From Eledone cirrhosa (lineage: Eukaryota): a stretch of 64,000 nucleotides of DNA. The translations under genes and the position numbers were made by a program. The first letter of the stretch is position 1. Each line of letters starts with the position of its first letter. The stretch covers positions 49,972,001 to 50,036,000 of the forward strand of contig OZ024750.1 in NCBI GenBank assembly GCA_964016885.1, written 5' to 3'. Below, in pieces: positions 23,812 through 49,559 of this stretch. The notes under the pieces are model-generated. The model was given only the letters and a program-made list of their open reading frames with translations. It did no database searches and was not told the origin of the DNA.

Positions 23812-24183
23812 CAATGATATTAAATAAATGGAAACTATATTTATAAAACTATATTTATTTTATTATATATATTTCAAGGGTACCAAAACACTTTGGTACG
23901 CTTTCTTCAGATAAAATACAACTTTTGTTTTATAAATAGAGACATACTCAGGAAATCATAGCTGATCAGTTGGATATACTCTATCCAGAGAATATCCAAC
24001 TGTATTTTATCTGAAGAAAGCGTACCAAAGTATTTTGAAATAAATATGGTTTTATAAATATAGTTTCCATTTATTTAATATCTTTGAATATTTACTCCAG
24101 GAAAACGTTGTGTGCTCTGAATCATTTATAAACATTTATATTTATATTTGTCGGATTTCCAACAAATTAAAAACCTCCTTCTA

Positions 24184-24187
<4 letters not shown>
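23812..24187. mobile_element. Fold-back PLE-type element in (TA)n
   Basis: Inverted arms 23812-23920 / 24001-24086, then ~100-nt tail; hammerhead in the arms. Confidence 0.75.
23856..23918 (-). ncRNA. Type I hammerhead ribozyme
   Basis: TATTTTAT CTGAAGA AAGcGTACCAAA-gtgt-TTTGGTACcCTT GAAA TATAT ATA ATAAAATA: canonical core, 8-bp stem I. Confidence 0.82.
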
Positions 24188-24245
<58 letters not shown>

Positions 24246-24439
24246 GATAAATCTACCAAAAGTTTACGGTAGTGTCCAATCCGTATGAAGAACTCAATGT
24301 AATCCGGATATCATGAAAAGAAGAGATGCATTCAAAAATCACTTCCAGTGAAAGATAAACGGAAAACAGAGTCAAGATAAATTATTAAAAAAATAATGAA
24401 TAAACAAAGAAACAGTTCCTTATATTAAACAAAAAAAGT

Positions 24440-24580
24440 TCATTATTTTACGATCGTTTCTAGGACATATATGTGTTAGAATTGGTATGCATATTCAAAA
24501 GATCTATGTACAAAATTATACAAACTATCAGAGGGAATATACATACCTTCACATATATATGCTGTCTTCAGAAATAATGA
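24440..24580 (-). ncRNA. Type I hammerhead ribozyme with extended stem II
   Basis: Reverse complement of 27450-27590. Confidence 0.72.
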
Positions 24581-25009
24581 TGCTTGTTTATTGATAATAA
24601 CAACAATTCAATATAATAGGGCTGTTTGGGAACAGATTTTGAATAGACCAATGAAATAAAGATTGAGATACATAAAAATCTATCAAGAAAATACAGCTAG
24701 GTGTGTATATATGTATGTAAATACGCTCACAGATGTGCATAAATGTGTATGCTCATATGTATACGTATAGTGAAAAAGTGTATGTAAATATAAAATTTAG
24801 AGCTAATGTATCTGTATGTCTGTAATCAACAAACGGAATAGATACATCATAAGTATATGAATATTGAGGCACTCACATAAACACGCCCACACACACTTAC
24901 ATTTAGATGCGGAAGTAAAAGAGGTAAGGGAGTATACTAATTAAAGGAAAGTGTCAATCTCGACATACTTATAAAAATGTATCAATAAATTAGAAATAAA
25001 ATTTTATTT

Positions 25010-25650
25010 TAATATTATAAACCTAATTAATATACAATTTAGAAATTAATATATAAATTAATTTTAATTTAGTTAACCTATAATTTTAATTTAGTTAACT
25101 TATAATTAAAATTCTAATACAGATGAAATGCAAAATATCGTGTAATCATAAACTGAGAAAAACTTTTAAATATATACCTAATTAGTATACACTTTAGAAA
25201 TTAATATATAGATTAATTTTAATTTAGTTAACCTATAATTAAAATTCTACTATAGATAAAATACAAAATTCTGCTTTAAATATTATAAACCTAATTAATA
25301 TATCATTTTTAATTTAGTTAACCTATAATTAATAATCTACTACCGATGAACTACTTAATTTGGCTTTCCCTCTTACAAAATTCATTTCCTAAAATTGATA
25401 CCATCAAGTAAATATATGTAATTATTTTTAATTTAGTTAAGCTATAATTAATACTCTACTACTGTTTAACTTCAAAATTCCGCTTTAAATATTATAAACC
25501 TAATTAGTATACACCTTAGAAATTAATATATTAACTATTTTTATTTTAGTTAATCTATAATTAATATTCTACTTATATTAAAATACATAATTTGGCTTTC
25601 CTTCTTACAAATACCATTTCCTAAAACTGATACCACTAAGTAAACACATA
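25010..25650. repeat. AT-rich degenerate tandem repeats
   Basis: TTAATTTTAATTTAGTTAACCTATAATTAA and TAAACCTAATTAATATA recur several times. Confidence 0.7.
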
Positions 25651-25836
25651 TAAAGCTTTAACTGCAGGTTAGTATTCTATGTTCCTTGAAACCTATATAT
25701 TTACTATTTCCCACTAATAAATTTAATCCCCACCCCCCTATAATTATATGTATATGTAAGCGTGGATGTGAGTATGTATATGTAAGTGTGTATGTATGTA
25801 TGTGTGTTTGTATGTGAGTATAAAAATACATATGTA

Positions 25837-25879
<43 letters not shown>

Positions 25880-25881
<2 letters not shown>

Positions 25882-26490
25882 TGGCTGCCAACTCGTTTTC
25901 GAGTACGGCCACTACTTTATATCCATGTAGGAGAACCCCTACCGAAGCGCTGAACGAGTGTGACTTTTTAGTCCAGCCAGCGACTTGAAAACTCTGGTAC
26001 AAACACTACACTTGTGACAATTATTGACACATAGTGCTGGGGCCATGGTACCATGTGAGGACAAGTGCAGAGAGATCTCCAGATATAAAGCAATGCCTGT
26101 GCCGTGAAGCTTTTATAGTGAGCAAAGGCACTGCACAAAGCCAGTCCCACTCTCTTAACCAAGATGATATTTACCAAAAAGAAGAACAAGTCAACATCAT
26201 TGGATACCATCAGGGTTGCAGGTGTTATATCAGAGTTTTCCTTCTCCTAGAATTCTGCCTTGACAAAGGCTAAGGGGTCATCTCTCCCGGTGATTCTGGA
26301 TGGCCATTGACTCTTAAGAGCTCCTTTGCCCTTTGACAGGTTTTGTTTTTAGTCCTGCAGGATGTCCAAAATCACCCTCCTCACCAAGAAACCTTGGTGG
26401 GGTTGCCAGTTTAGTCGCCAACGACCCGACCATGAGACAGGTTGTACTGGGATACATGTTACCAGTAGCACCAACTGGTGACCTGACATA
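25880..26490 (-). mobile_element. Internally deleted RTE derivative (5' UTR-like part joined to 3' end)
   Basis: CTAGGAGAAGGAAAACTCTGA, typical of RTE/BovB 5' UTRs, lies within ~400 nt of C2H2 coding and the RTE 3' terminus. Confidence 0.6.
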
Positions 26491-26518
26491 ATATATATAT
26501 ATATATATATATATACCT

Positions 26519-26559
<41 letters not shown>

Positions 26560-26683
26560 GTAGAGATGTGTATATGTATGTGTATATATGTGTATATGTG
26601 TCTGACTGTGTATATATGTGTGTGTATGTCTATATACATGTATGTTTGAGTGTGTGTGTGTGTGTGGTTGTATATATACATGG

Positions 26684-26736
<53 letters not shown>

Positions 26737-27449
26737 TGTATATATATATATGTATGGGTATATGTTTTACTTATTTTTATGCGTGTGCATACAAACAGGT
26801 CAATATGCGTGAGTGTAAGTATGTGTATGTGTGTGTGTATGTATGTACGTATCGAACGTATGGATGTGTAAATGTGCGTGTGTATATAAGCATGTATATT
26901 TTATGTCTCTCTTTTATGTTTTTTATGTTTCTTTTGTGAGACATGCGTGTCTGTGTTTGTATGTAGCACCCCCCTTTTTGTCTTTTTTTGTCTTCTTTTC
27001 TTGAGTTTTTTCCTTCTATAAAAATTTTTTTTATTTCTAATTTATTGATACATTTTTATAAGTATGTCGAGATTGACACTTTCCTTTAATTACTATACTC
27101 CCTTACCTCTTTTACTTCCGCATCTAAATGTAATTGTGTGTGGGCGTGTTTATGTGAGCGCCTCAATATTCATATACTTATGATGTATCTATTCCGTCTG
27201 TTGATTACAGACATACAGATACATTAGCCCTAAATGTTATATTTACATACACTTTTTCACTATACGTATACATATGAGCATACACATTTATGCACATCTG
27301 TGAGCGTATTTACATACATATATACACACCTAACTGTATTTTCTTGATAGATTTTTATGTATCTCAATCTTTATTTCATTGGTCTATTCAAAATCTGTTC
27401 CCAAACAGACCTATTATATTGAATTGTTGTTATTATCAATAAACAAGCA

Positions 27450-27590
27450 TCATTATTTCTGAAGACAGCATATATATGTGAAGGTATGTATATTCTCTCT
27501 GATAGTTTGTATAATTTTGTACATAGATCTTTTGAATATGCATACCAATTCTAACACATATATGTCCTAGAAACGATCGTAAAATAATGA
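27450..27590 (+). ncRNA. Type I hammerhead ribozyme with extended stem II
   Basis: TCATTATTT CTGAAGA [~104 nt, CATATATATGTG.../...CACATATATG] GAAAC GATC GTA AAATAATGA; 9-bp stem I. Confidence 0.75.
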
Positions 27591-27744
27591 ACTTTTTTTG
27601 TTTAACATAAGGAACTGTTTCTTTGTTTATTCATTATTTTTTTAATAATTTATATATATATATATATATACTTAGGTTAATAGGAGTTAGGTATTGTATA
27701 CCCGTGTCCCATTAAGGTATTGGCAGCATAATACTTATATATAT

Positions 27745-28500
27745 ATATAAACAAGAAATAGATTGACATATATATATATAAAATAAACATATGAAACAAT
27801 CACAGGGAATAATTTGTAAAGTGTGTAAGCTCACATAGCTAGGTAGTAACTAATTAAAGTTTAACTAGAACTTCAAATATAGATACCTTTTAAAATGATT
27901 AATCTCCTTTGTATATATTTCTTTAAATAAAAAATATATTTCACCATTTAATCGGTAAAAGATTTGACTACTGTGATTTATCGATTAATTAGTGAAATAT
28001 ATTTTTTATTTAAAAATATATATACAAAGGAGATTAATCATTTTAAAATGTATCTATATTTGAAGTTCTATTTAAACTTTAATTAGTTACCTACCTAGGT
28101 ATGGGAGCTTACACACTTTACAAATATATATATTTCTTTAAATAAAAAATATATTTCACCAATTAATCGGTAAATGATTTGACTACTGTGATTTACCGTT
28201 TAATTAGTGGAATATATTTTTTATTTAAAAATATATATACAAAGGAGATTAATCATTTTAAAATGTATCTATATTTGAAGTTCTAGTTAAACTTTAATTA
28301 GTTACCTACCTAGGTATGGGAGCTTACACACTTCACAAATATTCCATGCGATTGTTTCATGTGTTTATTTTATATATATATATATGTCAATCTATTTCTA
28401 GTTGATATAAAATGCTCGGATCTATTCATTGGAATCTTTGGGCTTATTCTGCAGTGGATATGGCGCATGTCCCTCAGACATGACACTCTTAATTTAATTT

Positions 28501-28502
<2 letters not shown>
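27745..28502. repeat. Fold-back element with duplicated loop and right arm
   Basis: 27745-27958 is inverted relative to 27977-28125 and 28192-28408; ~215-bp direct duplication; tail to 28502. Confidence 0.75.
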
Positions 28503-28551
<49 letters not shown>

Positions 28552-28556
<5 letters not shown>

Positions 28557-28645
28557 ATATTAATAAATGGAAACTATATTTATAAAACCATAATTGTTTT
28601 TTATATATATTTCAAGGGCGACCAAATTATGGTGCGCTTTCATCA
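28552..28645 (-). mobile_element. Single truncated arm of the 23812 family
   Basis: Homologous to 23812-23910; begins at the hammerhead core TGATGA; (TA)n on both sides. Confidence 0.65.
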
Positions 28646-28667
28646 TATATATATATATATATATATA

Positions 28668-28952
28668 TAAAGAAAAAGAGATGAAATCGAAAATGCAACT
28701 GGAGTCTTATTTTTTTTTAAAGATGTGAATGGATATTTAAGAGATGTGAGAAAAACCACAGACCCTCCATCTCAACTCACCTCTTGAAAAGCAGAAGAAC
28801 TGCGAAACCGGTAAAGGAACCAAATAAATATATATATTTAAAAAAAAAAAATAAGACTCCAGTTGCATTTTCGATTTCATCTCTTTTTCTTTATACTTTC
28901 ACTCGTGTAGGACACCTCGGTTATTTTTCATTTTGTAAAAAAACCCTCACTA

Positions 28953-28956
<4 letters not shown>
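28668..28956. mobile_element. Fold-back element in (TA)n with variant hammerhead
   Basis: ~50-bp inverted arms 28668-28720 / 28838-28894, then ~60-nt tail. Confidence 0.7.
28780..28817 (+). ncRNA. Minimal hammerhead motif, U3-A8 core
   Basis: CCTC TTGAAAA GCAG-aagaa-CTGC GAAAC CG GTA AAGG; one stem I mismatch. Confidence 0.55.
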
Positions 28957-29019
<63 letters not shown>

Positions 29020-29254
29020 ATATTTAGAAACACACAGATACATGCGGACACACACATATACATGAATGCATCCACACCCAACCGTGAGTTAAGGGTGCCA
29101 ACCTCACCGATGTTGCTCAATGAATGACTGGGACAGACCAATCCGGTTGAACCAGACTGAACCAGTATCAGAGTTAAAATTACATTATGAAGAGAGAAGA
29201 AACATTTAGATATAATTAGTAATAAAATGTATCATACCTAAACTGCTCCTAGCT

Positions 29255-29344
29255 TCCTCGACTACGTAGTTTCGTGGCATAAACAAAAACAATACATCAT
29301 AAAGATATAGAGTCCCTGCGAGGTCTGCCGACTTATCAAGAGGA
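29255..29344 (-). ncRNA. Type I hammerhead ribozyme, U3-A8 core
   Basis: Reverse complement of 29785-29874. Confidence 0.68.
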
Positions 29345-29784
29345 TACCTCATTTTACTAGTCTTAAGAACGCGTCTACACGACGTGAGAAAGAATCCCAA
29401 AAGGCGGAGGGGGAGATAGTCACGCGATATAACAGTCGAGAAACAGAGCTAAGCCTCTTATAACCCCGAAGAACATACCACAGAGTGTGTCCGCATGTAT
29501 CTGTGTGTTTCTAAATATATTGTTAATAACTCCCTCTGGTTGAGTAATCTTTGAAGTGTGGTGACTGCTGGAAAGCTGCCATTACTCATACTCCTCGCCT
29601 CCTTCACCACCTCTTCTACGGCTTCGATATGAATACCCCTCCGCCTCTGTGGTATTTTCTTCGGGGTTATAAGAGGCTTAGCTCTGTTTCTCGACCCTTA
29701 TATCGCGTGACTATCTCCCCCTCCGCCTTTAAGATTCTTTCTCACGTCGTGTAGACGCGTTCTTGAGACTAGTAGAATGAGGTA

Positions 29785-29874
29785 TCCTCTTGATAAGTCG
29801 GCAGACCTCGCAGGGACTCTATATCTTTATGATGTATTGTTTTTGTTTATGCCACGAAACTACGTAGTCGAGGA
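29785..29874 (+). ncRNA. Type I hammerhead ribozyme, U3-A8 core
   Basis: TCCTC TTGATAA GTcGGCA...TGCCAC GAAAC TACGTA GTC GAGGA. Confidence 0.7.
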
Positions 29875-29946
29875 ATCTAGGAGCAGTTTAGGTATGATAC
29901 ATTTTATTACTAATTATATCTAAATGTTTCTTCTCTCTTCATAATG

Positions 29947-29995
<49 letters not shown>

Positions 29996-29996
<1 letters not shown>

Positions 29997-30151
29997 CGAA
30001 GGAAATGTGGTAAGGAACCAGGTGGACCATAACGCACCAAAGTACTCAATACTTAGGGTAGTAGAGTGGGTAATAGGAACAAGACCCCGACGGCTGAGCT
30101 CAAGCCGTTTCGACGGCTTGAGCTCAGCCGTCGGTGTCTTACTTGTTCCTA
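29996..30151. mobile_element. Miniature fold-back element (3' half of a hammerhead plus tail)
   Basis: Hairpin 30073-30151; minus strand GAAA CGGCTTGAGCTCAGCCG TC GGG; (TA)n on both sides. Confidence 0.6.
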
Positions 30152-30152
30152 T

Positions 30153-30247
<95 letters not shown>

Positions 30248-30255
30248 TATATATA

Positions 30256-30340
<85 letters not shown>
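30150..30340. repeat. (TA)n microsatellite
   Basis: Direct reading; one of dozens of TA tracts. Confidence 0.95.
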
Positions 30341-30343
<3 letters not shown>

Positions 30344-30424
30344 GATATACCCAATTTGAAACTGGTTAGACCTTTACATAAGAGAGTACTCGATACTTGA
30401 TGTAGTAGCGTATGGCTATATTAT

Positions 30425-30614
30425 AATTGTTTCTACTTTTGGCACAAGGCCAGCAATTACCCAGTGCATTACTGGTACTTTATTTTATCGACCCCGTAAG
30501 GATGAATGGCAAAGTTAACCTCGGCGGTATTTGAACTCAGGATGGCTAGGGCCGTAACTATATTCGTCAAAGCATGGCTTCCGACCCTCTACCGATACTG
30601 CTAATCCACCGCCC
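30425..30614 (-). mobile_element. Meta-type SINE
   Basis: Full-length copy; 16-bp TSD ATGGCTATATTATAAT. Confidence 0.92.
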
Positions 30615-30778
30615 ATGGCTATATTATAATGAGTCAGCTACCGACGGGTGACTTATTGCCGTTTCTTCGAGCAAGGTTACGGAGACTGTCCGCGGGCAAT
30701 TAAATATTTATAGTCCAGTAATGTAGTACAATGATGAGTGCTGTTATATCCTACGAATATATATATATATATATATAT

Positions 30779-30904
30779 ACATTGAGCTATTTATCTTACT
30801 GGTAATAAGGTAGTAATAAATTACTGTCTTTCACTATTTAGGATTTAAAATATATATAACTATAAAAAGGTTTTAGTATATACATAACCATAAATAGTAT
30901 CCTT

Positions 30905-30912
<8 letters not shown>
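30779..30912 (+). mobile_element. Isolated 3' terminus of the PLE family at 18302 / 50662
   Basis: Reverse complement of 18302-18440; (TA)n on both sides. Confidence 0.8.
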
Positions 30913-30959
<47 letters not shown>

Positions 30960-30963
<4 letters not shown>

Positions 30964-31343
30964 ATATAAGATCAAAAGATGGTTAAAGGAGTTCCATGTA
31001 TTTTATTATGCGCATTTCAAAAACAAACATCATCATGCAATAATATTTGTGTTTTCATCAGATAAAACAGGAGAACATGATAAACATCAGATAAAACAGG
31101 AGAACTATCCACAAGTGTTTTTTAGCCTTCATATCATGTTCTCCTGTTTTATCTGTTGAAAACACAAATATTATTGCATGATGATGTTTGTTTTTGACAT
31201 GCGCATAATAAAATACATGGAACTCCTTTAACCATCTTTTGATCTTATATTATGTATACTCCAGTCCTACAAACTGTAGAGTGCTTCTTATCCGATATCT
31301 GCATTGCTTTATTGTACTACAATAAAACTCACCTCCTACATTA
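30960..31343. mobile_element. Fold-back PLE-type element in (TA)n
   Basis: ~120-bp inverted arms 30960-31082 / 31132-31253, then ~90-nt tail. Confidence 0.8.
31001..31067 (-). ncRNA. Type I hammerhead ribozyme
   Basis: TTTTAT CTGATGA AAACACAAATATTATTG.../...TGATGATGTTTGTTTTT GAAA TGCGC ATA ATAAAA; the plus-arm copy (31147-31213) has two core mutations. Confidence 0.82.
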
Positions 31344-31364
31344 TATATATATATATATATATAG

Positions 31365-31710
31365 GAAAATCCCGTCGAAGCCGCATTGGGTAAAGTATTA
31401 CCTCGAAGGTAGTAAACAGGTGTTTCAAGCGTGGTGCTAAACAGTTTAGCACTAGTAAACTGTTGCTACCACACCATCTTCAACAACAATGTACTCAAAC
31501 CTTCTTACAGAACCACACCCATATTCGCACAAATCCTTAAACACCGCCAAAATCGATTCTAAAAATTCCGCTCTGACCTCATTGAGGTGGAATCCACGCT
31601 GTGTAATTGCACTGACAAAACCCATTGTCAATTAAACAACAAATGCCGGCTACGGAAGTACGTATACAAATGCAATGCCAAGGAGGGAAAACACCATCAC
31701 CACCTACATC
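31365..31710 (+). pseudogene. PLE (Naiad-type) fragment
   Basis: FNNNVLKPSY-like segment and CNCTDKTHCQLNNKCRLRKYVYKC. Confidence 0.6.
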
Positions 31711-31716
31711 AGATAC

Positions 31717-31814
<98 letters not shown>

Positions 31815-32130
31815 TTGTATGATTGCATGAACAATACGTCAGTAGGCGGTATGCCGGTAGACCACTCGATGCTAGTGCAGAGCAGAGTATAATACTATAA
31901 GGATAAGGAACAGGATTCAGTGTTGTATCATAACATATTTAATAACATATTACATATGTTTCACTATCGATCAGCTCGAAGCAAACCTATTATAGATCGA
32001 ACGTGTCTATGTAATCAAAAGGTCGTGAGATATGCCTAGTATATAAATTCGTCACCGATTTTGTGTTCAAATCTCTATCTAACAGCTCTCTACAGCACAT
32101 ATTAGCATCATGTTATTCTATGCCCGTTCA

Positions 32131-32292
32131 TAGTCGGACACTATGCTTTGAAGCATAGAGTTACGTCCCTTTATGATCTGAGTTCAAATCCCTCCGAGGT
32201 TAACTTTGCCTTTCATCCTTACGGGGTCGATAAAATAAAGTACCAGTAATGTACTGGGTAATTCCTGGCCTTGTGCCGAAAATAGAAACAGT
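32131..32292 (+). mobile_element. 5'-truncated Meta-type SINE
   Basis: 20-bp TSD GTTATTCTATGCCCGTTCAT. Confidence 0.9.
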
Positions 32293-32549
32293 TATTCTAT
32301 GCCCGTTCATTGGTTCAATTATCCCATCATCATCAACAATCTATCCTCGGGCTGGCGGCTGTCTGTCCTCCGGCAAGCTGTCCAGTCCGTTCATGCGAGG
32401 GAGGTCGTTGGCCTGCCATTTACTGCTAGATTTAATGTTCATATGCCACAGATATCTCCACACACACACACATATATATACATATATATACACATACATT
32501 CAGACACATTCGTACACATACACAGACACACACATATACATATATAAGT

Positions 32550-34929: not shown

Positions 34930-36614
34930 CTGAAAAATAAATACAAAATATTAATGAAGAGACGAACTCATCATGGCAAAACGTACAAGTCTCCTTCGAC
35001 CAAATCGCAACTACAACCGATGTATACAGTGGAGCTACGAGCTTAACACAGAATTATATGAAGCATACAAACAATCTGAACCCCAAAAGTTCGGTTTTAT
35101 GCAAAGGCTAAACACTTTATGGAACTCCAAACACCCAGAATTAGACTTTTCTCCAAAGCATTTAAATGAACGGGCAAAACGTATCATTAGATGTAAATTG
35201 ATACATCTAACGGAATTGAGTGATACTACAAATACAGCCCTTGTAGACAACCACCCCACCTCCACTGACAGACAAAGAGAATGGCCAGCTAAATCTAACA
35301 GTGAACAGCTCACCAACAATGTTGCTGAAATCCATCCCACTTCCAGTGAAGAACAGCGAGAATGGTCAGCTAACTCTAGTAGTAAGTGTCACCACATCAA
35401 CAACGAGGCTGAAATTCATGACTCTACTGTACAAACAGAACACCAAAAACTTGTGGACACCTTACAAGTGATATGGGATGATATGTTTCAAGAGATACAC
35501 TTAATGTGAGTGAAAGACCATACAACACCAGAATCAGTAAAGAACCCACTAAATTGGAATTGAAAGCTGTGAACGAAATAGCTGACAATTATCTGAAGGC
35601 TATACGATCTAAAGATGTAGAAACGACATTTGAAACGCTTAACATTTTGTTATATGTTTCAGCTGTCACATTGCTATCATATAACACACATCTAAAACCA
35701 CGCAATCAAGATACAAACAAAAAGCCTGAACCAGCGTGGATGCGAAATATAAAAAGCAAAATATTGTCCCTGAGACAAAGTCTCTCACACATCGCAGTCA
35801 TTATGAAATGCAACATAGAGAGCAATTTCACACGACACCAGGAAGACCTAAAGAAAACATTAGAGAGACGATTTGGATATAAAAAATTTAAAACTTTAAA
35901 CTCCAAATTATACCAGTTGAAACAACAACTCACAGCTACAACAGAAAGACTAAAATATAAGTCAACAGCACATAAACGACAAGTGCTAAATAGATTGTTT
36001 GCCAGAGATCCTAAATCAGTTTATCGCAGCTTCGGTGGCAAAAGCTCAATCTCTGTAAATGACATCCCTTCAGAAGAACAGGTTGAGAGCTACTGGAGAT
36101 ATGTATGGGAAACGGATGACGGATTCAACAGACAAACTAAATGGCTAAAATAACTGGAACAGGACTACTGCCAACATGTCCAGACAAAGCAATATGACAT
36201 AGATGGGTGAATCCTGGAAACTGCTCTACAGAAAATGTCGAAAAGGAAATCACCAGGCCCAGACCTCATTACAGGATACTGGTCGAAGAATTTCACTTTC
36301 TACGCCTGTTTACAGAAACCATTAAAGGCACACAAGAACTGCCTAGATGTTTATCAACTGCCACTATTGTCCTCATTCCCCAAAATAGCCAAACCAGCCT
36401 TGCTATAAATTACTGCCCAATAGCCTGCCAAATCATCATGTATAAATTATATACTGGTTGCCTTAACCTGTTCTTACAGGATCACTGTGCTACCAACAAC
36501 ATTATAACACCTGAGCAAGCTGGTGGAAAGAGGGAGGTGTGGGGTTGCATAGATCACCTACTAACTTATAAAATGATTCAAGAAAAAACAACAAAGAATC
36601 GCAGAAACATGACT
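34930..36614 (+). mobile_element. R4/Dong-like LINE, 5' half
   Basis: WSYELNTELY...RLNTLWNSKHPEL and CPIACQIIMYKLYTGCLNLFLQDHC...EQAGGKREVWGCIDHLL, homologous to 9796-11520. Confidence 0.85.
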
Positions 36615-39600
36615 TGGGGCGTCCTGAACGAAGAGCGCTTGTTGCAAAGGAGCTTCTACGTTACGATCTTGACATCGTAGCTTTATCTGAGACGAGGCTA
36701 GCTGGAGATGGTCATTTTACGGAATTTTGTGGAGAATATACATTCTTCTGGAAAGGAAGAGATGAAGGAACCAGAAGAGAGGCTGGGGTAGGATTTGCTA
36801 AGACTGTGCTTGTGAACAAATTAGAAGAATTCCCAGTAGGGATTAGTGAGCGTCTTATGTCCATGAGAGTTCCACTGGACAAGGGAAGATATGCTACCCT
36901 GGTGAGTGTGTATGCTCCAAGTATGAGTTCTGTCGATGAGGAAAAGGTGTCCTTTTACCATGCCTTGAAATGTGTTTTAAGAAATATCCCTCAGGCAGAC
37001 AAAGTCATTGTGCTTCGTGACTTTAATGCTAGAGTGGGTAGGGATTTTAACACATGGAATGTAATCGGAAGGCATGGGGTGGGAATGTGTAACAGCAATG
37101 GTATGCTCCTGCTGCAGATGTGTGAGGAGCTGGATCTGTGTGTTACCAACACCATGTTCCAACAAAAGAACAAATTCAAGACCACATGGATGCATCCTGC
37201 ATCTAAGGAATGGCATCTTTTGGACTACGTCCTAGTCAGGATGCGTGACAGACAGGATGTGCAGTGCGTTCGTGTTCTTCGTGGAGCTGAGTGCTGGACG
37301 GACCACCGCCTGGTACGCGCAAAAGTGAAACTAATAACTAAACGTAAAATCCGGGCTCCTGGTGTTGCCCTGCCCAAAAGATTGAATGCTGCTCGTCTTA
37401 AGGATAAAACTGTGAAGAGGACATTGGAAGAAGTGATGCAGGCTGCAGATCTTGGTGAGGATTGGCCGACCCTTAAAAAGTCGGTTTATGATGTAGGCAG
37501 GCGTGTTCTGGGATTGGCGCAGAAGAAACATCAGGACTGGTTTGATGAGAATGATGTACATATAGAAGACTTGTTGGCTGATAAGAGGCGTGCTCTGTCA
37601 CGCTACTTGACGGCAAAACCACAGGAGAGGAATACGTTGCATGAGGAACTCAGGGATGTAAAATCACGTGTTAGGCGGAGTCTTTCTCAGATGAAGGATC
37701 AGTGGTGGAGTGAGAAGGCTGGTGAGATACAAACTGCGTCTGATTCCAATAACACAAAGCTGTTGTACAGTTTCTTGCGTGAGCTTCATGGACCGTCTTC
37801 TTCTCTGGTGACACCGCTTCGCAGCAAGGATGGCAAAGAACTTCTTCGTGACTCACAAGGAATTCTACGAAGGTGGCGAGAGCACTTTGATGATCTTTTG
37901 AATCAGCCGTCTGTCGTCAGTGAAGATTTCCTCAATCTCATTCCAGAAAGTCCTGTGAAAGTAGCTCTCGCAGAACCTCCGACGCTTGTGGAGGTTGCAG
38001 TGGCTATTTCGAAGCTGAACAGTGGAAGATCTCCAGGTATAGATGGCATACATGCTGAGCTCCTACAATATGGTGGTGAGAGACTAATGCAACATCTTCA
38101 CTCTTTGTTTGGCAGGATATGGGCTAATGAATCCGTACCTGAGGACTGGAGAGATGCAGTAATGGTGGTCTTGTACAAGGGAAAGGGTAACGGGAACGAT
38201 TGTGGGAACTACAGAGATATATAATTGCTTTCTGTCTTAGGGAAAGTTTTATGTAGGGTGCTTCTGGACCGTCTGCTGACACACATTGCAGATTGTGTTC
38301 TTCCTGAAAGTCAATCTGGTTTTCGTGCTGGACGCGGCACTACTGATATGATCTTCTCAGCTAGACAGCTCCAGGAGAAGTGCATGGAACAAGGCTTGGA
38401 TCTGTATCAGATTGTTGTCGATCTGACAAAAGCTTTCGATACTGTTAACAGAGATGCATTATGGAAGGTTCTCCAGAAACTTGGTTGCCCGAATAAGTTC
38501 CTTGCTTTAGTTAGGTCTTTCCATGACGACATGAAGGCTTGGGTTAATGTCGGGGGTAACATGTCGGAGCCTATCTCAGTAAAAAAAATGGAGTGAAACA
38601 GGGGGATATTCCAGCACCGACCCTGTTTGCCATATACTTTGCAATGTTTTTCTGTATTGCATTCAGGAATTGCGAGCATGGTATTTACATCCGATATCGA
38701 ACATCTGGCAGCATATTTACATCAAGTGCTTTGCTGCGAAGACAAAAGTATTTACATCAATCATAAGAGACCTCTTGTATGCAGATGATTGCGATCTTGT
38801 AGCGCACACAGAGAGTGATATGCTGCACATTTTGAATACATTTTCTGACGCTTGCACTGCCCTAGGTCTGACTGTCAGTCTCAAGAAAACCGTCGTCATG
38901 TACCAACCTGCCCCTGGCAAGCAGTACATGGAACCAAACATCTATGTGTATGGCAAACGACTTGGAGTGGTTGATCAGTTTGTCTACCTGGGAAGCACTG
39001 TCAATCGATACGGCAACCTTGACAGTGAAATCTCACTTAGGATTAGGAAAGCAAGTGATGCTTTCGGAAAGCTAGAAAGGCGACTCTGGGGTCGGCGAGA
39101 TATATGCAGGAGGACAAAGGTAAAGGTGTACAGGGCATGTGTGTTCTCTTGTCTTCTTTATGCCTGCGAGACCTGGGTCACATATCGACACCACCTTAAG
39201 CAATTGGAGCGTTTCCATCGGATGTGTCTCAAACGGATCCATGGCGTTCACTCGAGGGACCACATCAGTGATGTCGAGATTTTGGAAAGCTCTATGTGTG
39301 ACAGTATAGATCCTCTTGTGCTTAAGCAACGACTCCGTTGGAGTGGTCACATTGCCAGGATAAAGGATTCTAGAATACCAAAACGACTCTGTTATGGAGA
39401 GTTGGTTAAAGGAAAACGACCGCCACATAAACCAAAAAAGAGGTATAAGGATTCCTTGAAAGCCTCTCTGAAAGACGCTAACATCTCTGCTGATACATGG
39501 GAGAATATTGCTACTGATCGTAATAAATGGAGAAAGACTGTATATGAGGGAAAAGTTGCCTTTGAGGCATCTCGAATCGCATACGAGAAAGTAAAGCGGG

Positions 39601-39959
39601 ATGTGAGGAAGGGAATTGCTGTTGCACTTTCAGACGGCGAGGGTCCTCCTATGGTGCTGACATGAAGCGTATGTGCGAGACTCTGCCTAAGCAAAGCTGG
39701 ACTCGAAAGTCATCTTCGCAGTCATAAAGTAAGACCAGTGGTTGACTACCAGGCTGCTGTTGGAGATGCTACTCATCATGCTTGCCAAACATGTGGTAGA
39801 GAATGTAAATCAGCAGGAGGGCTCAAGCGACATGCAAAAGTACACGAACTCCAACCACAGCCCACTATTCCCAGTGAATGTTTTGGTTGCCGACTCTGTG
39901 CAAGACATTTTAGATCATTGGCTGGGCTAAAAAGCCACATTCGATCGCAGCGCTGTTAG
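36614..39959 (+). pseudogene. RTE APE-RT ORF with few disruptions
   Basis: ORF pieces 36614-38224, 38225-38596, 38670-39665 and 39738-39959. Confidence 0.9.
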
Positions 39960-41013: not shown

Positions 41014-41135
41014 AATTGTTTCTACTATTGGCACAAGGCCAGCAATTATATCAGTGCATTACTGGTGCTTTGTTTTAACAACCCCGTAAACTAGAAAGGC
41101 AAAGTTAACCTGGGCTGGATTTGAACTCAGACTGC
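41014..41135 (-). mobile_element. Partial Meta-type SINE
   Basis: Diverged match to the 3' two-thirds of the SINE. Confidence 0.75.
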
Positions 41136-41194
41136 AATAAATATCATAAATGGATGCCCCCCCTCTCGCCACATATATATATATATATATATAG

Positions 41195-41259
<65 letters not shown>

Positions 41260-42039
41260 AGTGTGTGTGTATAATATGTATGTATACATATTATATATAT
41301 ATATATATATAAGTGTGGGGGGTAGATAGTTGTGTGCGGGGTTATTTTGTCAAGAAGAACGTATAAGACTTCACTAGTTCTATCGACTGGAAGACCTACT
41401 CATTGAATTAACTCACAACTCAGTATTTAATTAGGTCTACGAATCAAAAGCCATTTTTCTCGTGCCATATAATGGGTTTAATTGAGAAGAGCTAGCATGA
41501 AAAACACTCCTAATTTTACCAACAAATATTTCTATATATTCAAAGACATAATTTCTATATGTCATTTTTGAAGAGGCTATCTTTTAATTTGAAAATAATT
41601 TGACTGGCATGTCTAGCATCTCGAGTTACCATTTAAAAGCTACCTACTCAGATTCTGTATTGCGTTGTTGATGTTAAATCGTTTAATCTGAAACCTGATC
41701 TGGTCGACTGAAACTATAATCAAACATATTTTAGATATCCCTACACTATGTGTTTCTGTGTCTATCAGGGATGACATTTTATAAAACGTGTATTTGATTG
41801 AGGACAATCCAATTATGATTTCAATAAAATCTTCCCGAATAATGTTTCCGAATCGACTGAAATCTGAAATTTCTCCATTTTCCGAGTGGGAGACATTGGA
41901 TATGACAACCAGAATAGAATATCTAAGTGAATATATATATATATATAAAGATCGATCGACTTTCGTCAAATCGGACCTAGTAAACGATTTTTCCATTGGT
42001 CTCTCCTATTGCTAATACTATCTATCGGTCGCAAATCCA

Positions 42040-42166
42040 GGTAGAAAGAGGAACGTGAAATAAAGTGTGTTGTTCAAGGATAAAACACATCGCCCGGTCC
42101 GGGAATCGAACTCACAACCTCACGATTACGAATCCAATACTCTAAACACTCAGCCACATGCCTTCT
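42040..42166 (-). mobile_element. tRNA-derived CORE-type SINE
   Basis: A-box TGGCTGAGTGTT, B-box GAGTTCGATTCC, then CORE-like segment. Confidence 0.75.
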
Positions 42167-42213
42167 TACACACACCCACACACACACACACACACACATA
42201 TATACACCCCCCC

Positions 42214-42278
<65 letters not shown>

Positions 42279-42298
42279 TTATATATATATATATATAT

Positions 42299-42960
42299 AG
42301 GGCGGGTAAAATTCCCGAGATCCATGGACGAGTTCTCTCCAGCGGTCGCTGTCCCTCATTATTACTGGCATGTCCTGAGTCTCCAACAGACCAGTGTCTG
42401 TCCTTAGGGCATCAACATACATTAACCATGGTCTTCTTCTTCCAGTGTATCCATGTAGGGGCTGCCACAGGAGCACTGAATGCAATGTCAACTCTGGATG
42501 TCGGTGAGCATGTCCAGCTAACCCCAGTCTCCTCTGTGTCACTTTTGAGCTGACTTCTGGGAGGCTCCCGTACAGCTCTGAGTTTTTCATCCTCAGTGTA
42601 TACTGATTAATGTTCAGAGCCATCTTCAAAATTCTCGTGTAGCACACATCTAACATCTGAGTGAGTTTCTTGGTCAGTGCCCAAGTCTCAGACCCGTACA
42701 GCTGCACAGACCCCACTACAGCAATGAAGAGGCGGATTTTCGGGTCTTTACGAAGATCCGACTTCCACACCGATCTCAAGCTGTGGCACGCCGCCCAGGC
42801 CTTGTTTTTCCTCTCAACCACATCATCTTCCGTATTTCCAATCTTTGCTCCCAAATACAGGAAGTCCTCAACCAACTCTAGCGGATTCCCGCCTACACTA
42901 GTGATCCCCTCTGGCTTCTCAACATTCTCTACCAGATATTTTGTTTTAGTCTTATTCATT
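42299..42960 (-). mobile_element. RTE-like LINE 3' fragment (same family as 22945-23800)
   Basis: VEDFLYLG, LYGSETWALT, RRLGLAGHAHRHPEL; ends GGGAATTTTACCCGCCC then (TA)n. Confidence 0.88.
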
Positions 42961-42976
42961 CTCATATATATATATA

Positions 42977-45875
42977 CTAACAGATTCACCCGGCGTTGCT
43001 CGGGGTTTGAAATTATGCTAAGAATATACAGCTAGGAAGTAAATGAAGAACATTATGTGTCCCCAACCTGTGAAAATAAGCAGAAGTCTTCAATAATTAA
43101 TGCAAACGAATATTTAGTGAAATATTTGTACACATAAAACTATGCTGATAATGAAGGAAAACACTGAAAGGATGTAGTTATACAAATGATTGAACACGAT
43201 ACACGGTGCAAATCTGTAAAAAAAACAGGCAGTTTTGCTAAAGTACAAAAAGTTGTAATGAAAACAGAGTTGTATACAAACAAAAAAACAATGGGAGTAG
43301 AATAAGAGAAATTCTATTATTTGAGAGCATCCTTTGCTGTGTATGGTTAAATGTTTAACTTATAATCCAAAATATCCTGCATGACATATTCATTAGTATG
43401 TTTTGTAATAAGTAAGGTGAAGTCAAGGCAGAGCTGTAATAAGTTTTTTTGTTAACACTAAAGCACTTCAGGATAGACGATTTTCTTTGTTTTTCTTTTC
43501 GGAACAAACGCAAAGAGATTATCTCAACTGCCAACCCGTGAGCAGGCAACGTAGAATTGTCCGTGCGAAAAGCAAGGTTCATCCAAGTGAATTCCAGTGA
43601 CGGACAGAGGTTGACCTTGCGACTTGTTTATGGATATCGCAAAGGCAACACGAAGGGGAAATTTGGTTCGGCGAAAGGAGAAGGGTGTATCCACGCCTGA
43701 TGTTGTCAGGCTAATTTTTGTTATTATCACATCCTCGCCCTTTCCACATCCGGATAGAATGGTAGCGTCAATACGAAGTGGAGACAGTTTTTTAACCACA
43801 AGGCGTGTACCATTCCATAGTTTTGGAGGAGTGATATTTCTCAGCAAAATAACTGGTGATCCCTCTTTCAGAACCAATGTATTAGGAGGTAAACCAGGAG
43901 GATTTAAAGAATTTAGAAATTCAACTGGATAATTGACCGCACCCTGTGGATCACATACAGTATCAATAGATTTATATATCCGTGGACATCCAGGAAGAAG
44001 CTGAAGAAGCTGATCGTTAATACAGCTAACCGGGATATTTTTGGGTGCAAGAATGGCTCTTTCGTATAGCCAATCAAGATTTGTATAGTTATCACGCAAG
44101 TTCGGGAATACACTCGCCTTGAGATCATCGACAGTTTCAACTACATTGCAGATGTGATCAATTGCTATGTGTCCATCTGCACCTGGAGGTAGGTTACTAT
44201 CACCCATTGTAAGAATGTCTCCAGAAAATGTTGATGACAGAGGGTCCCCATGCAAACTTGCACGCATGTTGGTAGTTAGTCTTAATGATGTAACTTGTCG
44301 CCACAATGGTGAAGACTAAAGACATGCATTCACCGAATCTGCTCTTGTTCTTTTCGGTATTATAGGAAGAGTCTGTCTGAAGTCTCCTGATAGCAGAAGG
44401 GTGACACCCCCCCCCCATAACATCACTGCAATCCCGTATGTCTTGCAAAGACATGTCTAGTGCCTCAAGAGCACCTTTGTGCGCCATTGTGCACTCATCC
44501 CAAACAATAAGGTGACATCTTCGCAGCAGATGAGCCCTTTCGGAGTCTTTGGTGATATGACAAGGAGGAGTTTCCAATTTTGCAAAATCGAGAGGTAATT
44601 TAAAAACTGAATGTGCCGTCCTTCCACCGGGAGCAAAGTTGCTGCGATTCCAGAGGACGCGACTGCTATTGCTATGTCCTTATTCTGTCTAATCTTGGCA
44701 AGAAGAAGTTTAGTAACTAAAGTTTTTTCCTGTCCCCCTTGGAGCATCAAAGAAAAATATGCCACCTCTTCTTTGAAATACCAATTCAGTAATGGTGGTA
44801 TAAGCCAGTCGCTGATCAGCTAGAAGTTTTGGCTCATTATCTGTGACGTAGAGGGCGAGATCATGGAAGTTATAAGAAGTCTCCTGTATGATATCTGTGG
44901 GAAGTTTGTTTGAGCCTGTGCGATGAGTTTCTGGTAAACGGTAGTAACGCAAAACATTTCCTCCAATCAGAGCTAACTTGTCCTCACTATCAATGAGAGC
45001 TATGTTGTATAATTCATTACTAAAGCCGACCTCTATTTCTGGAAGCAGCAATTGTGCTTGGTGTATGTAGTCGTCTGTTAGTTCATCCCTATATTTCATC
45101 CACAAGTAGAGAGGATCAGATAAGTTGCACGATGCAAAAGTACCGCAAATAAATTTATTAGGCTGGCAGGTGAATGCGAAAGAGCAACTTCCGCCATCGT
45201 TGCATCCCGCTGCGAACCATCTTCCAGCAATCCACACCTCAAACATGCCTTTGTGGATGTTGGAAGAACTTGTCCGTCTAACGTTCGGAGATCATGAAAG
45301 CAGGTAGGTCCTCTGACCTCATGCGAAGATGGAAGCACTCGTGTTGGTTTGGGGGCACAGTATAAACTCTGCCCAAGCACTCGTTGAACTTGATGCCTGG
45401 ATAACCTTCGACACACTGTCCTGTATTTCTTCCCTTCCATGTATTTTTGTCCCATTTATAGTAAGATGGGACTTGTGGATATAGTAAGGTTTTAGCAAAT
45501 GGATCTTCTTGACATAGTTTAAAGAAAGCGATAAGAGTAGTATCCTTTGGTTTTTGTGCTAACTGAGCAGCTGATGCATTCGAAAAATATACTCTCTGAC
45601 CGTTCCTGAAAAGTTGGTTATCTCACTTTTTTAATAAAGATTGTCAATAAAGTTTGTTATCTCCCTTACATCAATTTTTCTACCGATAATTTTGATATCA
45701 ATTTGTTATTGCTCAACGTGGGTTGATTTGAAAAATGTTTGTGATGTGACAATCGTAGCGACCTCTGCAACGTGCACAGAAAGTTTGGTCAAATTCAGTT
45801 GGTAATTGTAAAAGCCTTAAGCATGCAAAGTTGTACACAGACACACACACATCCTCGCTTTTATATATATAAAGA
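42977..45875 (-). mobile_element. Internally deleted Helitron with both termini and a Pif1-like helicase relic
   Basis: 5' A|TCTTTATATATATAAAAG; 3' CCCGAGCAACGCCGGG hairpin plus TTAG|T; DAPRGTGK, AVASSGIAATLL, LIVWDECTM, INKSQGQ, FSHGQFYVACSRV. Confidence 0.92.
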
Positions 45876-45927
45876 TATAGGTGTGTGTGTATATATATAT
45901 ATGTATATGTGTGTGTATATATATATG

Positions 45928-47167
45928 GTATAACAAGTTATCGTTATGGGTAATCCAGAGGCTGTGAGTATTCTGTGTCGGGGATAGTTTTAACGTACGG
46001 CTTTGTTTGACTCAACAAGATGTTTCCATAATTAGGCAGCGAATTCGCGAGAATTTCTATGTAGGTTCTACTTGGAGTAATAATAGTGAAAGATTGAAGA
46101 ATAACATAGTCGTCTATACAAGGGGCTTTATTTCAAGTATTAACAATTGTTTCCTTGATCAGGTGTGTCTAGAGGCCTAGAGGCCGCTAATCGCTCGAAG
46201 TTGCGTCATTCGATCTCCAGTACAGTTTTTACCTCTGATCAAATCCTGAGAATACGAAAGAACTCACACATGGCAAGGTATATATAGAGAAATAGTGTAG
46301 AAACAAACCAATAACAGTAATAATAAAATATAATGATAAATAGGTAAAGAAGTTACACATGTAACAATTAAACAAAGTAAGAAAAGAAAAAGAAGTAAGA
46401 ATAAGTAAAAGCATATAAGTACAGATACTATATTTGATAATAGTGGTGGTGCTGAGTAAGTGTATGTATAAGGATGTGGCGGTGGATGTAGTGCCAACAT
46501 GAAAAGCAATATTCGAAACATACATAGATGTGTGTAGAGAATAAGAGGTAGTAACAAATGACAAATAAAGAAAAAAGCAATAAATTATGAATTAAGTGAG
46601 AGATACTAGTATGTGACCTAGGGCTAAGGATGGATGGTGAAGGGGGGGGGTTTTGATATGTGTATGAGGTATTTTTTCCTGCTGAATATCTTATCTTACT
46701 GGGGTTGATGTGGTTTCAGGGAGAGAGAGTAATAGAAATGATAGGAGATTTATGATCTAGTGAGCAGTCAGTTAGTTGACAGCTAATAACAATGTGGTGG
46801 TATGTATTGCATACGTTAACATCCCGGTGGTTCAGTTCTAATTTTGGGATTGTTGGGTCGAATCACGATGGTTTCAAATTTGTGAACTTGGTAGCTGTTT
46901 TGTGCCTACATAAAATTGATCTTTCTATTTTTCTGTTAAGCAGCATCTTAACGTAACTTAAAATATGGAATAGCTCCATATTCCAAAGTCTGCAGTGGGA
47001 CATTCCATTGTAGTAGGCCCTTGCTCCCGATAATTTTGACCAGCTAATCCAACATCGAGCGATTAGCGACCTCTAGACTCGCCTGACCAATAAAACAATT
47101 GTTAATACTTGAAATAAAGCCTCTTGTGTACAGCGGACCACCAGGTTATTCTTCAATCTTTCACTAT
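45928..47167. mobile_element. Fold-back PLE remnant including the ORF C-terminus
   Basis: Inverted arms 46083-46200 / 47054-47167; minus strand encodes LLNRKIERSILCRH near 46900-46945. Confidence 0.7.
46137..46255 (-). ncRNA. Degenerate hammerhead motif (G5C)
   Basis: GTATT CTCAGGA tTTGATCAG...CTGATCAAg GAAAC AATT GTT AATAC. Confidence 0.5.
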
Positions 47168-47523
47168 ATATATATAGTTTTTGATGTGAGATAGACTAAT
47201 CTTACTGGATTCCTGTTGATAAGCACAGAAGATTTGGACATTTCACTCTTTTATTTCTATTCCATTTCGATTCTCTTTATTTTTCAATTCACATTCCACC
47301 GTTGCGAAACTTATTTGGGTTTCGAGGTTCAAATTCGTCTACAGAACAGGTTTGAATTTTGAAATTTAAATATGTCCAGGAATCATGGCCGTTACCAATA
47401 TAATCTTATCTTTATTGACTTGTATCGAGACAGACAAATTGTATTCACTTTTATTAGTTTATTTCATTAATAGCTAACTTTGTCTGTTGCAATGTAAACA
47501 CATTTCGTGTTTATCATATACTT

Positions 47524-47609
<86 letters not shown>

Positions 47610-47788
47610 ACTGCCATAGCTATGGCTTTAGATCTTAAGAGAATCACATATGGTTAACTTGAAAGGTTATATGCTGGAATGCTGCTTACACTGTGTCATA
47701 GCTGAACGTCTCATAAAATGGAATTCTAGTAATATTGTTGAAGATATATCTTCAGACGACAATTCATTCTTTCATTACCATTAAAAGG

Positions 47789-47873
47789 GGTCTGACGAGC
47801 CGTGGATTACAGAGTCGGGCTAGATCGATACAGATCGAATCTTGAGCTGATCAGTGGCGAAACGCGCGTCACC
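47789..47873 (+). ncRNA. Type I hammerhead ribozyme
   Basis: GGT CTGACGA GCC...GGC GAAAC GCGC GTC ACC; (TA)n follows ~50 nt later. Confidence 0.75.
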
Positions 47874-47921
47874 AACCAATAAACGTAATAAAGGAGTAAC
47901 CAACCGTTCTTGTTTTATTTT

Positions 47922-47983
<62 letters not shown>

Positions 47984-48111
47984 CGGGTGTGGAGGTAGGT
48001 TAATGCATTTGTTGAATAGGAAATATAAATTTGAATAATTTTAATATCAAGAGAGTATCCCTGTGAAGGTCTTAAGGACCAGTTGGAGTTGTGGTTTGCA
48101 TGGCACATTTG

Positions 48112-48149
<38 letters not shown>

Positions 48150-48193
48150 CAAATGTGCCATGCCGATATATATAAATCAAATGTGCCATGCCG

Positions 48194-48332
48194 ATTATTT
48201 CTGAAGACAGCATATATATGTGAAGGTATGTATATTCCCTCTGATAGTTTGTATAAATATTGTACATATATCTATAGAATATGCATACCAATTCTCAGAC
48301 ATATATATCCTAGAAACGATCGTAAAATAATG
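48194..48332 (+). ncRNA. Type I hammerhead ribozyme, third copy of the 27450 family
   Basis: ATTATTT CTGAAGA ... GAAAC GATC GTA AAATAAT. Confidence 0.72.
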
Positions 48333-48386
48333 AATTTTTTTTTTAATACAAGGAACTGTTTCTTTGTTTATTCATCATTTTTTTAA

Positions 48387-48438
<52 letters not shown>

Positions 48439-49030
48439 TGTATGTGTGTGTGTGTGTGTGTGTGTGAATGTGTTTGTGTGAATGTGTTTGTGTGTATGTA
48501 TATATATATATGTATATATATATGTGCGTGTGACTGTAGAAATTTACAAAAATCTTTGGAAACGCCTCATTCCAGAAGAGTTAGATCATCATATATTGCA
48601 TTAACACTGGCACGTGTTTCCTTGCATGTGTTATATAATCGGTATAGGATCGCTGATTTTGATTATTTCAATGAAAGTTAATCGAATCCAATTACTCATA
48701 AAATTATATGTAGACAAAACAAATATCGAAATAGGAATAAGGAATTTTTCACATATCGAGATATGTGAGGAAACATAAAATCACTGATGATGTCACATAT
48801 GTGTGACGAAATAATTCTGAGAAACTATATTTATATCTATATTTTAACTGTTTGTCAATCAATGATAAAGAATGCTTACCAGCTGAATCAATTATAGAAT
48901 TATAAAATATACTGAAGCAAAATCCAACCCAAATCAAAGAGGGTGTGTGTTTTATTATATATTTCTGGCAATGTTATCACAACATAACCCTCCACAACTA
49001 TAACAGTATATGTATGCACACACACACACA

Positions 49031-49108
<78 letters not shown>

Positions 49109-49150
49109 TTCAAAATATTAACAAATATAGACACTCGTGTGATCAAGTAT

Positions 49151-49215
49151 ATTTTATTATACTTATTTCAGAGGTACTGAGGTATCTTTAACAGTACGTC
49201 CTCATCAGATAAAAT
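49151..49215 (-). ncRNA. Type I hammerhead ribozyme
   Basis: ATTTTAT CTGATGA GGAcGTAC...GTACCTCT GAAA TAAGT ATA ATAAAAT. Confidence 0.72.
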
Positions 49216-49293
49216 TTGTTAAAATATGGTTAAAATTTAGTCATGGCAGAATGTTAACCATCTACTTAGTCAAGGTATGTCAAGCATCATCTT

Positions 49294-49358
49294 ATTCTAT
49301 CTGATGAGGACGTACAGTTGAAGTTAGCTCAATACCTCTGAAATGTGTATAATAAAAT
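49294..49358 (+). ncRNA. Type I hammerhead ribozyme
   Basis: ATTCTAT CTGATGA GGACGTAC...ATACCTCT GAAA TGTGT ATA ATAAAAT. Confidence 0.7.
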
Positions 49359-49498
49359 ATACTTGATCACACGAATGTCTATATTTGTTAATATTTTGAA
49401 ATAATATTAATAACTCCGGAAAACCCGAACTGTGGAGTGCTTCTAATCTATTGTATACCTTTATTCATTGATTTATTTATTGAACCCTGTTTAACCTT

Positions 49499-49559
<61 letters not shown>

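Follow-up and report, generated by a model that had tools for sequence, protein, structure and literature searches.

Penelope-like elements (PLEs) of the Hydra clade carry an endonuclease C-terminal to the reverse transcriptase (RT), target (TA)n and have a hammerhead ribozyme near the 3' end, according to the passages on this clade in Craig et al. 2021 (PMC8557442). PAc, a Poseidon element of Anolis, nicks and extends both target strands in vitro (Frangieh et al. 2024, PMC11167929). Two internal starts of PAc match its tail boundaries and one of them lies in a stem-loop; the passages of that paper on initiation name no conserved signal. Here we analyse 64,000 nt of Eledone cirrhosa (assembly GCA_964016885.1, contig OZ024750.1, forward-strand positions 49,972,001 to 50,036,000), hereafter the window, which is AT-rich and holds 107 (TA)n runs. 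Its fold-back PLE insertions have one arm that stops at (TA)n and another that runs on into a tail, with ACTC or GCTC just past the stop. From the comparison of copies, this word is the 5' strand of a conserved bulged stem, found twice between the hammerhead region and the start of the open reading frame (ORF) in most of the Hydra-clade families examined, and each stem is likely a docking site in the RNA that sets the RT start 4-6 nt upstream.

A bulged stem past the tail-less end

A preliminary description of the window had placed ACTC (GCTC at 28414) just past the stop of the inverted arm at ten sites, and all ten words stand there: ACTC at 24094, 28901, 29529, 31258 and 49413 on the plus strand, GAGT (ACTC on the minus strand) at 24369, 29171, 30064 and 46075, and GCTC at 28414. 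Each follows directly on the stretch of the long arm that matches an inverted arm anchored at (TA)n, at +7 to +11 counted from the partner of the first non-TA base. The elements had been taken as unrelated, but some of the sites belong together: a single element supplies both 29171 and 29529 as its two hairpins (F12; F numbers denote sequence clusters), and 24094 and 49413 share one cluster (F1).

For comparison, we used 1.4 Mb of the same 3.0-Gb genome at preset coordinates, the last 600 kb of which formed the held-out part. A fold-back detector blind to the motif was run on the window and this sample. It returned 192 raw fold-backs, 129 of them asymmetric and 127 after de-duplication, in 53 clusters; 119 junctions in 51 sequence clusters lie outside the window, and a motif start was scored at +6 to +12. 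Clusters are not clean families, since F13/F20, F15/F30 and F0/F28 are duplicates. One 50-kb stretch of the sample (L021-L025, G000 C1:30.00-30.05 Mb) is without any (TA)4 run, which all other first-sample blocks have.

ACTC is present at 55 of the 119 junctions (shuffles: mean 4.0, maximum 11) and in 15 of the 51 clusters (mean 1.8, maximum 7). The held-out part gives 22 of 47 junctions (mean 1.6, maximum 6) and 8 of 25 clusters (mean 0.9, maximum 4). Among all 4-mers at the 119 junctions ACTC ranks at the top; its reverse complement occurs at none of them at +6 to +12, and control windows placed downstream or within the arm contain ACTC in 0-13 of 119. The enrichment of ACTC just past the tail-less end, for which the preliminary description had proposed a comparison with shuffles, is confirmed as exceeding chance. 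Counting GCTC as well, RCTC is found at 63 junctions and in 22 clusters. The word had been put about 4-7 nt past the stop, and in the sample the gap that follows the TA overlap is usually 4-5 nt (45 of 75 copies). At 49 of 70 motif-bearing junctions the start of the tail matches the TA run over 2-6 nt, versus 8.5% of control positions. The reading of the fold-backs as PLE insertions holds, as does that of the word as the mark of a fixed element end, and the solo copies at 28552 and ~48390 do share their stop points with their relatives at 23812 and 27650.

The four-letter word is not itself the signal, as had been supposed. Aligned copies make RCTC the 5' strand of a predicted stem that is closed by GAGY and continues into a variable upper stem; the partner of ACTC is GAGT, that of GCTC is GAGC, and a 2-nt bulge sits on the 3' side. 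Proximal hairpins follow the first, internal end, and the distal hairpin follows the far end of the tail. The sites in the window are:

23812..24185, plus strand: fold-back mini-element of cluster F1, with inverted arm, sense arm, hammerhead-like core at ~24011-24040, internal end at ~24087 and tail to (TA)n
24094..24113, plus strand: proximal hairpin of F1; ACTC at 24094-97, partner decayed to GTGT here and GAGT in most relatives
24292..24372, minus strand: proximal hairpin of F13; ACTC at 24369-72, TT bulge, GAGT at 24292-95, 73 nt between; element 24242-27650
28414..28443, plus strand: proximal hairpin; GCTC, partner GGGC here and GAGC in 4 of 4 relatives shown; element 27750-28502
28901..28904, plus strand: ACTC of F7 with no GAGY partner; element 28670-28956, linked ORF with GxKF, a non-Hydra exception
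29115..29174, minus strand: proximal hairpin of F12; ACTC at 29171-74, TT bulge, GAGC at 29115-18, with a mismatch in the outer pair (GCTC/GAGC in a diverged relative)
29529..29545, plus strand: distal hairpin of F12; ACTC, TT bulge, GAGT, visible since the arm reads through the tail end
30044..30067, minus strand: proximal hairpin of F0; ACTC at 30064-67, TT bulge, GAGT at 30044-47; element 29995-30149
31258..31282, plus strand: proximal hairpin of F6; ACTC, TA bulge, GAGT; element 30964-31341
46010..46078, minus strand: proximal hairpin of F34; ACTC at 46075-78, TT bulge, GAGT at 46010-13; arms 46086-46203 and 47050-47164
49413..49438, plus strand: proximal hairpin of F1; ACTC and GAGT, hammerhead-like core at ~49301-49343; element 49106-49501

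We called the partner as the first GAG downstream of RCTC in 23 clusters. ACTC is followed by GAGT in 11 and by GAGC in one, GCTC by GAGC in seven and by GAGT in none (Fisher p 1.6e-4, uncorrected for kinship); the other four have no partner or GAGA. Within 40 nt, 13 of the 23 clusters have an exact partner, versus 1.7 in shuffles. F29 has GTTC with GAAC in six of six copies, and pairing of TCTC with GAGA is known from one copy only. The upper stem was scored on a separate set of 30 sites (four duplicate or related clusters dropped, eight sites added by hand), 27 of which have a partner. Pairing is maximal with a 2-nt bulge on the 3' side, at 66 pairs over the 27 sites versus 15.8 in shuffles; none of 2000 shuffles reaches as high, and the other registers stay at background level. 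The first bulge base is T at 24 of the 27 sites, the first upper pair is T-A eleven times and C-G eleven times, and 8-73 nt separate the two strands.

ACTC/GAGT also occurs within stem III of published Hydra ribozymes. We rejected hammerhead stem III as the identity of the RCTC stem, GAA standing directly before RCTC in none of the 23 clusters. G-U wobbles were likewise dropped as proof of an RNA strand: the changes to GTTC in the F0 distal hairpin, to GGGC at 28440 and to ATTC in F34 are each confined to one copy. The strand of the hairpin was assigned instead by the polarity of the ORF and the hammerhead.

Two ends and a single tail

The preliminary description tied the signal to the end of the inverted arm. 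This tie was rejected: 3' ends on the ORF side share that stop to the base, so inverted arms have no special claim to it, and the tail may sit on either arm. Of 12 aligned F15 copies, the ordinary 3' end lies at the internal site in 6 and bears the tail in the other 6. Both ends are visible at 21 F15 loci, 16 of which a script reads clearly as one-tailed (eight with the tail on the inverted end, eight on the main end); of the other five, three are one-tailed by eye, one is tail-less (the window copy) and one is complex, with no two-tailed locus. Across 11 families in the window and sample, head-to-head pairs have one tail in 83 of 92 cases, none in six and two in three, where independent choice of ends would predict one tail in about half; four pairs with an unclassified end were set aside, and F2, F7 and F3 were excluded. 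The tails mostly measure 60-170 nt.

A hairpin that sets the start should also be found at the far end of the tail, and it was searched for there in five families: F6 and F13 fit, F5 fits partly, F7 failed and F1 gave no match. In F15, a second hairpin lies past the tail end, just before the ATG, and F12 has one at its far tail end too. The far end of F0 has 291 matches, and among the matches listed GCTC is present in 98 of 100, outer G and C being fixed by the pattern. Single copies provide a far-end hairpin in F42 and in F2, where it is a GCTC/GAGC stem; the far end is partial in F29 and F33 and different in F8. A second hairpin follows the far tail end in most families that show read-through, and insertions end just 5' of either copy, at TA. 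F0, F6 and F13 have ACTC/GAGT first and GCTC/GAGC second, so that both forms occur in one element. Altogether, the cis element is real and probably functional.

Past the fixed ends of other clusters (F2, F3, F8/F19, F9 and F11) stand TTTC- or CTTC-like words or different hairpins, perhaps clade-specific versions of the signal. At L200, from ~3858 onward on the minus strand, a copy folds back within the first hairpin region, which gives nested palindromic ends. F0 also forms tandems: G000 C2:356030055-356031896 has at least seven F0-derived units with a period of 299 nt, retrozyme-like, and in other F0 tandems the unit recurs about every 3.54 kb.

Carrier elements and the rest of the window

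Judged by their reading frames, the carriers of the hairpin are Hydra-clade PLEs and not Naiads. The preliminary description had pointed to Naiads, an identity we rejected, because GIY-YIG is C-terminal in the linked ORFs and N-terminal in Naiads. A C-terminal GIY-YIG follows the RT in the window ORFs at 20.5-22.9k (minus strand) and 51.4-53.1k (plus strand), read by eye, and C-terminal GIY-YIG endonuclease frames lie upstream of the tails in seven clusters (F0, F5, F6, F13, F15, F16 and F35). The N-terminal marks read RWR and HADKT in the window, and RRLRW, KRVRWR and HSDKT in F6, F13 and F15. The CxCx5C linker, CxxC and CxH are present around conserved E and N, as CNCISNRTC, CNLC and SCQH or equivalents. 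Tail ends run into (TA)n in 46 of 55 F0 and 52 of 72 F15 cases. Pfam gave no relevant match for any of six ORF pieces. The genome has tens of thousands of endonuclease candidates; a DNA search of G000 with the tail of 31258 was empty and is uninformative.

A scan for a relaxed core and stem II found a hammerhead-like core in 7 of the 23 RCTC clusters in sense and in one in antisense, and in these 7 it lies ~35-60 nt upstream of the first end. An Rfam scan of 22.5-54.5k gave no hammerhead and only microsatellite-driven matches under gathering scores. In aligned copies of the abundant F15 (L142-L170; window 16185-16208) the core reads CAGAAGA, not CTGANGA, a change that may inactivate or alter the ribozyme. 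F7 (L246-L262, window 28670-28956) has an N-terminal extension of ~400 aa before a GxKF motif (KGLKF), which puts it in a PLE clade other than Hydra.

Coding copies and solo arms in the window are the following:

13720..16258, plus strand: coding PLE of F15, 5'-truncated, GIY-YIG frame 14273-15115, hammerhead-like core at ~16185-16208
18432..18465, minus strand: hairpin of GCTC, TT bulge and GAGC, by eye, in the tail that follows the broken Hydra-type ORF of 20490..22933 (minus strand)
20490..22933, minus strand: broken Hydra-type ORF with RWR, DKT, RT core, CxCx5C linker and C-terminal GIY-YIG
28553..28644, minus strand: solo tail-less arm, kin of 23812, ending at the same internal site as that element
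48194..48390, plus strand: solo tail-less arm, kin of 27650, ending at the same internal site as that element
50756..50789, minus strand: GCTC/GAGC hairpin, by eye, in a tailed inverted end that precedes the broken Hydra-type ORF of 51442-53093 (plus strand)

The F15 copy shows no hairpin because both its ends stop at the internal site. The coding family represented at 18.3k and 50.7k also has a lone tail fragment at 30780-30909 (plus strand), between (TA)n runs, which starts just before the hairpin bulge. The 17.9-kb element of the preliminary description was not identified; the sole inverted pair near that span consists of two copies resembling short interspersed nuclear elements (SINE-like; 41015-41134 and 58865-58984). 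Copies of this ~190-nt SINE-like repeat are found at 3572-3766, 7614-7939, 15847-16048, 30417-30614, 32133-32295, 41015-41134, 56257-56443, 58672-59202 and 61353-61540, some of them within PLE 3' regions. Helitron-like Rep/PIF1 helicase fragments, by eye, lie at 3245-6828, 43524-45291 and 54258-55064. Fragments of long interspersed nuclear elements (LINEs), with endonuclease and RT frames, are at 400-1209, 23152-23797, 36572-39665 and 42300-42963; those at 23.2k and 42.3k form an inverted pair.

Proposed start-setting by paired hairpins, and known systems

Of the roles suggested for the word, RT priming fits best, whereas a plain nicking word in double-stranded DNA fails on the pairing over 8-73 nt; the preliminary interpretation is thus partly supported. 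We propose that the GIY-YIG domain would nick (TA)n on both strands, and that the hairpin would dock the PLE protein, with an internal start 4-6 nt upstream. Each freed 3' end could then pair over 2-4 nt with the TA beside a hairpin; one strand would be extended from the first hairpin, giving the tail-less end, and the other from the second, giving the tailed end. The two target strands would use different hairpins, probably of one RNA. As the tail would be the RNA between the two starts, a head-to-head insertion would get one end of each kind.

It is possible, if doubtful, that the telomerase-related PLE protein binds as a dimer to the two tandem bulged hairpins of one RNA and starts two complementary DNAs (cDNAs) at once, one per nicked strand, each 4-6 nt upstream of its hairpin. 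This would amount to structure-programmed twin priming, explaining both the one-sided tail and the head-to-head repeats, and to a portable RNA module that places an RT start inside any RNA. More generally, an element that covaries across very divergent families, and that coral and sea cucumber elements apparently share, makes the choice of ends and the one-sided tail open to simple mutant assays. The hairpins allow ends to be annotated by rule in genomes rich in such elements, and may be relevant to the way in which telomerase-related RTs find their position on an internal template.

The hairpin could instead work in DNA, the GIY-YIG domain binding an extruded or single-stranded form in element DNA or cDNA, nicking a few bases upstream and trimming the ends. 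GIY-YIG enzymes typically cut at a fixed distance, and sequence alone leaves RNA or DNA unfixed. In D. virilis, moreover, the tail is required for the endonuclease to recognize plasmids, as reported in the passages used from PMC11167929. We nevertheless hold this improbable: the second hairpin, which tailed ends stop short of, is missing from the insert, so that the precursor would have to be longer; extrusion from AT-rich duplex would be unlikely where the pairing spans up to 73 nt; and RT starts of the anole element in vitro already give both ends (PMC11167929, same passages). Slightly less credible still is that the hairpins set RNA 3' ends, by guided cleavage or as a stop to trimming, for ordinary target-primed copying. 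The sharpness of the ends would suit it, as would the anole RNA-seq read ends that coincide with start sites in PMC11167929, but a hairpin blocking trimming would stay in the product, yet the ends lie 5' of it; the hammerhead core is upstream of the first end and not at it, and the same source has the anole RT starting internally regardless of the RNA 3' end. We give the least credence to hairpins as protein-binding or packaging signals with ends nearby only through the nearest unpaired AU stretch. The spacer does vary by a few bases, and other PLE families have fixed ends without this stem; set against this are the predominance of the 4-5-nt gap and the frequency of nearby TA steps (also in the F15 loop), while the ends mostly keep to two sites.

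Several observations weigh against start-setting by the hairpin. RCTC is absent from about half of the junctions, although these denominators take in SINE pairs and chance pairs. In 9 of the 23 representatives, minimum-energy folding predicts that the motif pairs with a probability of less than 0.5, and the outer pair is mismatched in F12, F23 and the distal hairpin of F29. As the G-U pairs are private mutations, sequence does not decide between RNA and single-stranded DNA. An endonuclease tree of nine families leaves five of six inner branches unresolved, so independent switches are not countable. The far end of F5 is TCTC with an uncertain partner, and the far-end search for F1 was empty. 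F2 has one tail in 10 of 10 pairs with TTTC at its first end, and F7 has one tail in 5 of 5 pairs, yet it is without the full hairpin and its far end is ACCC; this exact hairpin is therefore not needed in all PLEs. F3 has two tails in 7 of 9 pairs and one tail in 2 of 9. Finally, of six published Hydra consensi read by eye, two are clear, two partial and two tail-less. The two clear ones speak for the signal: the 3' ends of Hydra-2_Amil (coral) and Hydra-2_Ajap (sea cucumber) read TA, a spacer of 5-6 nt, GCTC, upper stem, TT or TA bulge and GAGC. Hydra-1_Amil and Hydra-1_Crog have a partial hairpin, and Hydra-1_Obim and Hydra-1_Ajap end without a tail.

In L1 twin priming, both target strands prime on a single RNA, which yields an inversion, and in stringent LINEs an RNA stem near the start recruits the RT. 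In those systems the RNA is copied from its 3' end and the copy includes the stem. Here the stem sits on the 3' side of the start and escapes copying, and the two cDNAs cover overlapping sequence. In the passages on the Hydra clade in PMC8557442, the elements share with ours the C-terminal GIY-YIG, RW[KR], DKT, the CxCx5C linker and CxxC/CxH, along with (TA)n targets, an inverted 5'-truncated copy and a tail that is often one-ended; they differ in that no conserved end hairpin is described there and the tail is put at 30-40 bp. Naiads, in the same source, resemble ours in (TA)n targeting, tail and inverted copies, but are without canonical hammerheads. The Penelope of Adineta vaga (PMC3846280) has a comparable optional tail at one inverted pseudo-long terminal repeat (pLTR) and a head-to-head layout, which is put down to self-priming on an antisense template; the words 'stem' and 'hairpin' are absent from the main text.

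The closest likeness in the copying itself is with PAc, where, in the passages of PMC11167929 on initiation, the tail is the sequence between two internal starts, both strands are extended, a hammerhead lies upstream, a dimer is predicted and a stem-loop is found at a start. In PAc the start is inside the ORF, in an AC-rich stem-loop, at a site described as non-homologous to the target; the starts here are upstream of the ATG, overlap TA and are each followed by the conserved bulged stem. In the RNA template given in the methods of that paper we note by eye, as a lead only, a UCUC/GAGA stem a few bases 3' of the 111-118 start region. The preliminary description knew of no report of the motif, and within the open-access literature, to which our searches were limited, the bulged hairpin pair was not found described, nor is the hairpin described in the portions compared of PMC13282606, the preprint 10.64898/2026.07.22.740005 and PMC4209133. 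The element class, the tail and internal initiation are already known, and what is new here, as far as the open literature shows, is the pair of bulged hairpins.

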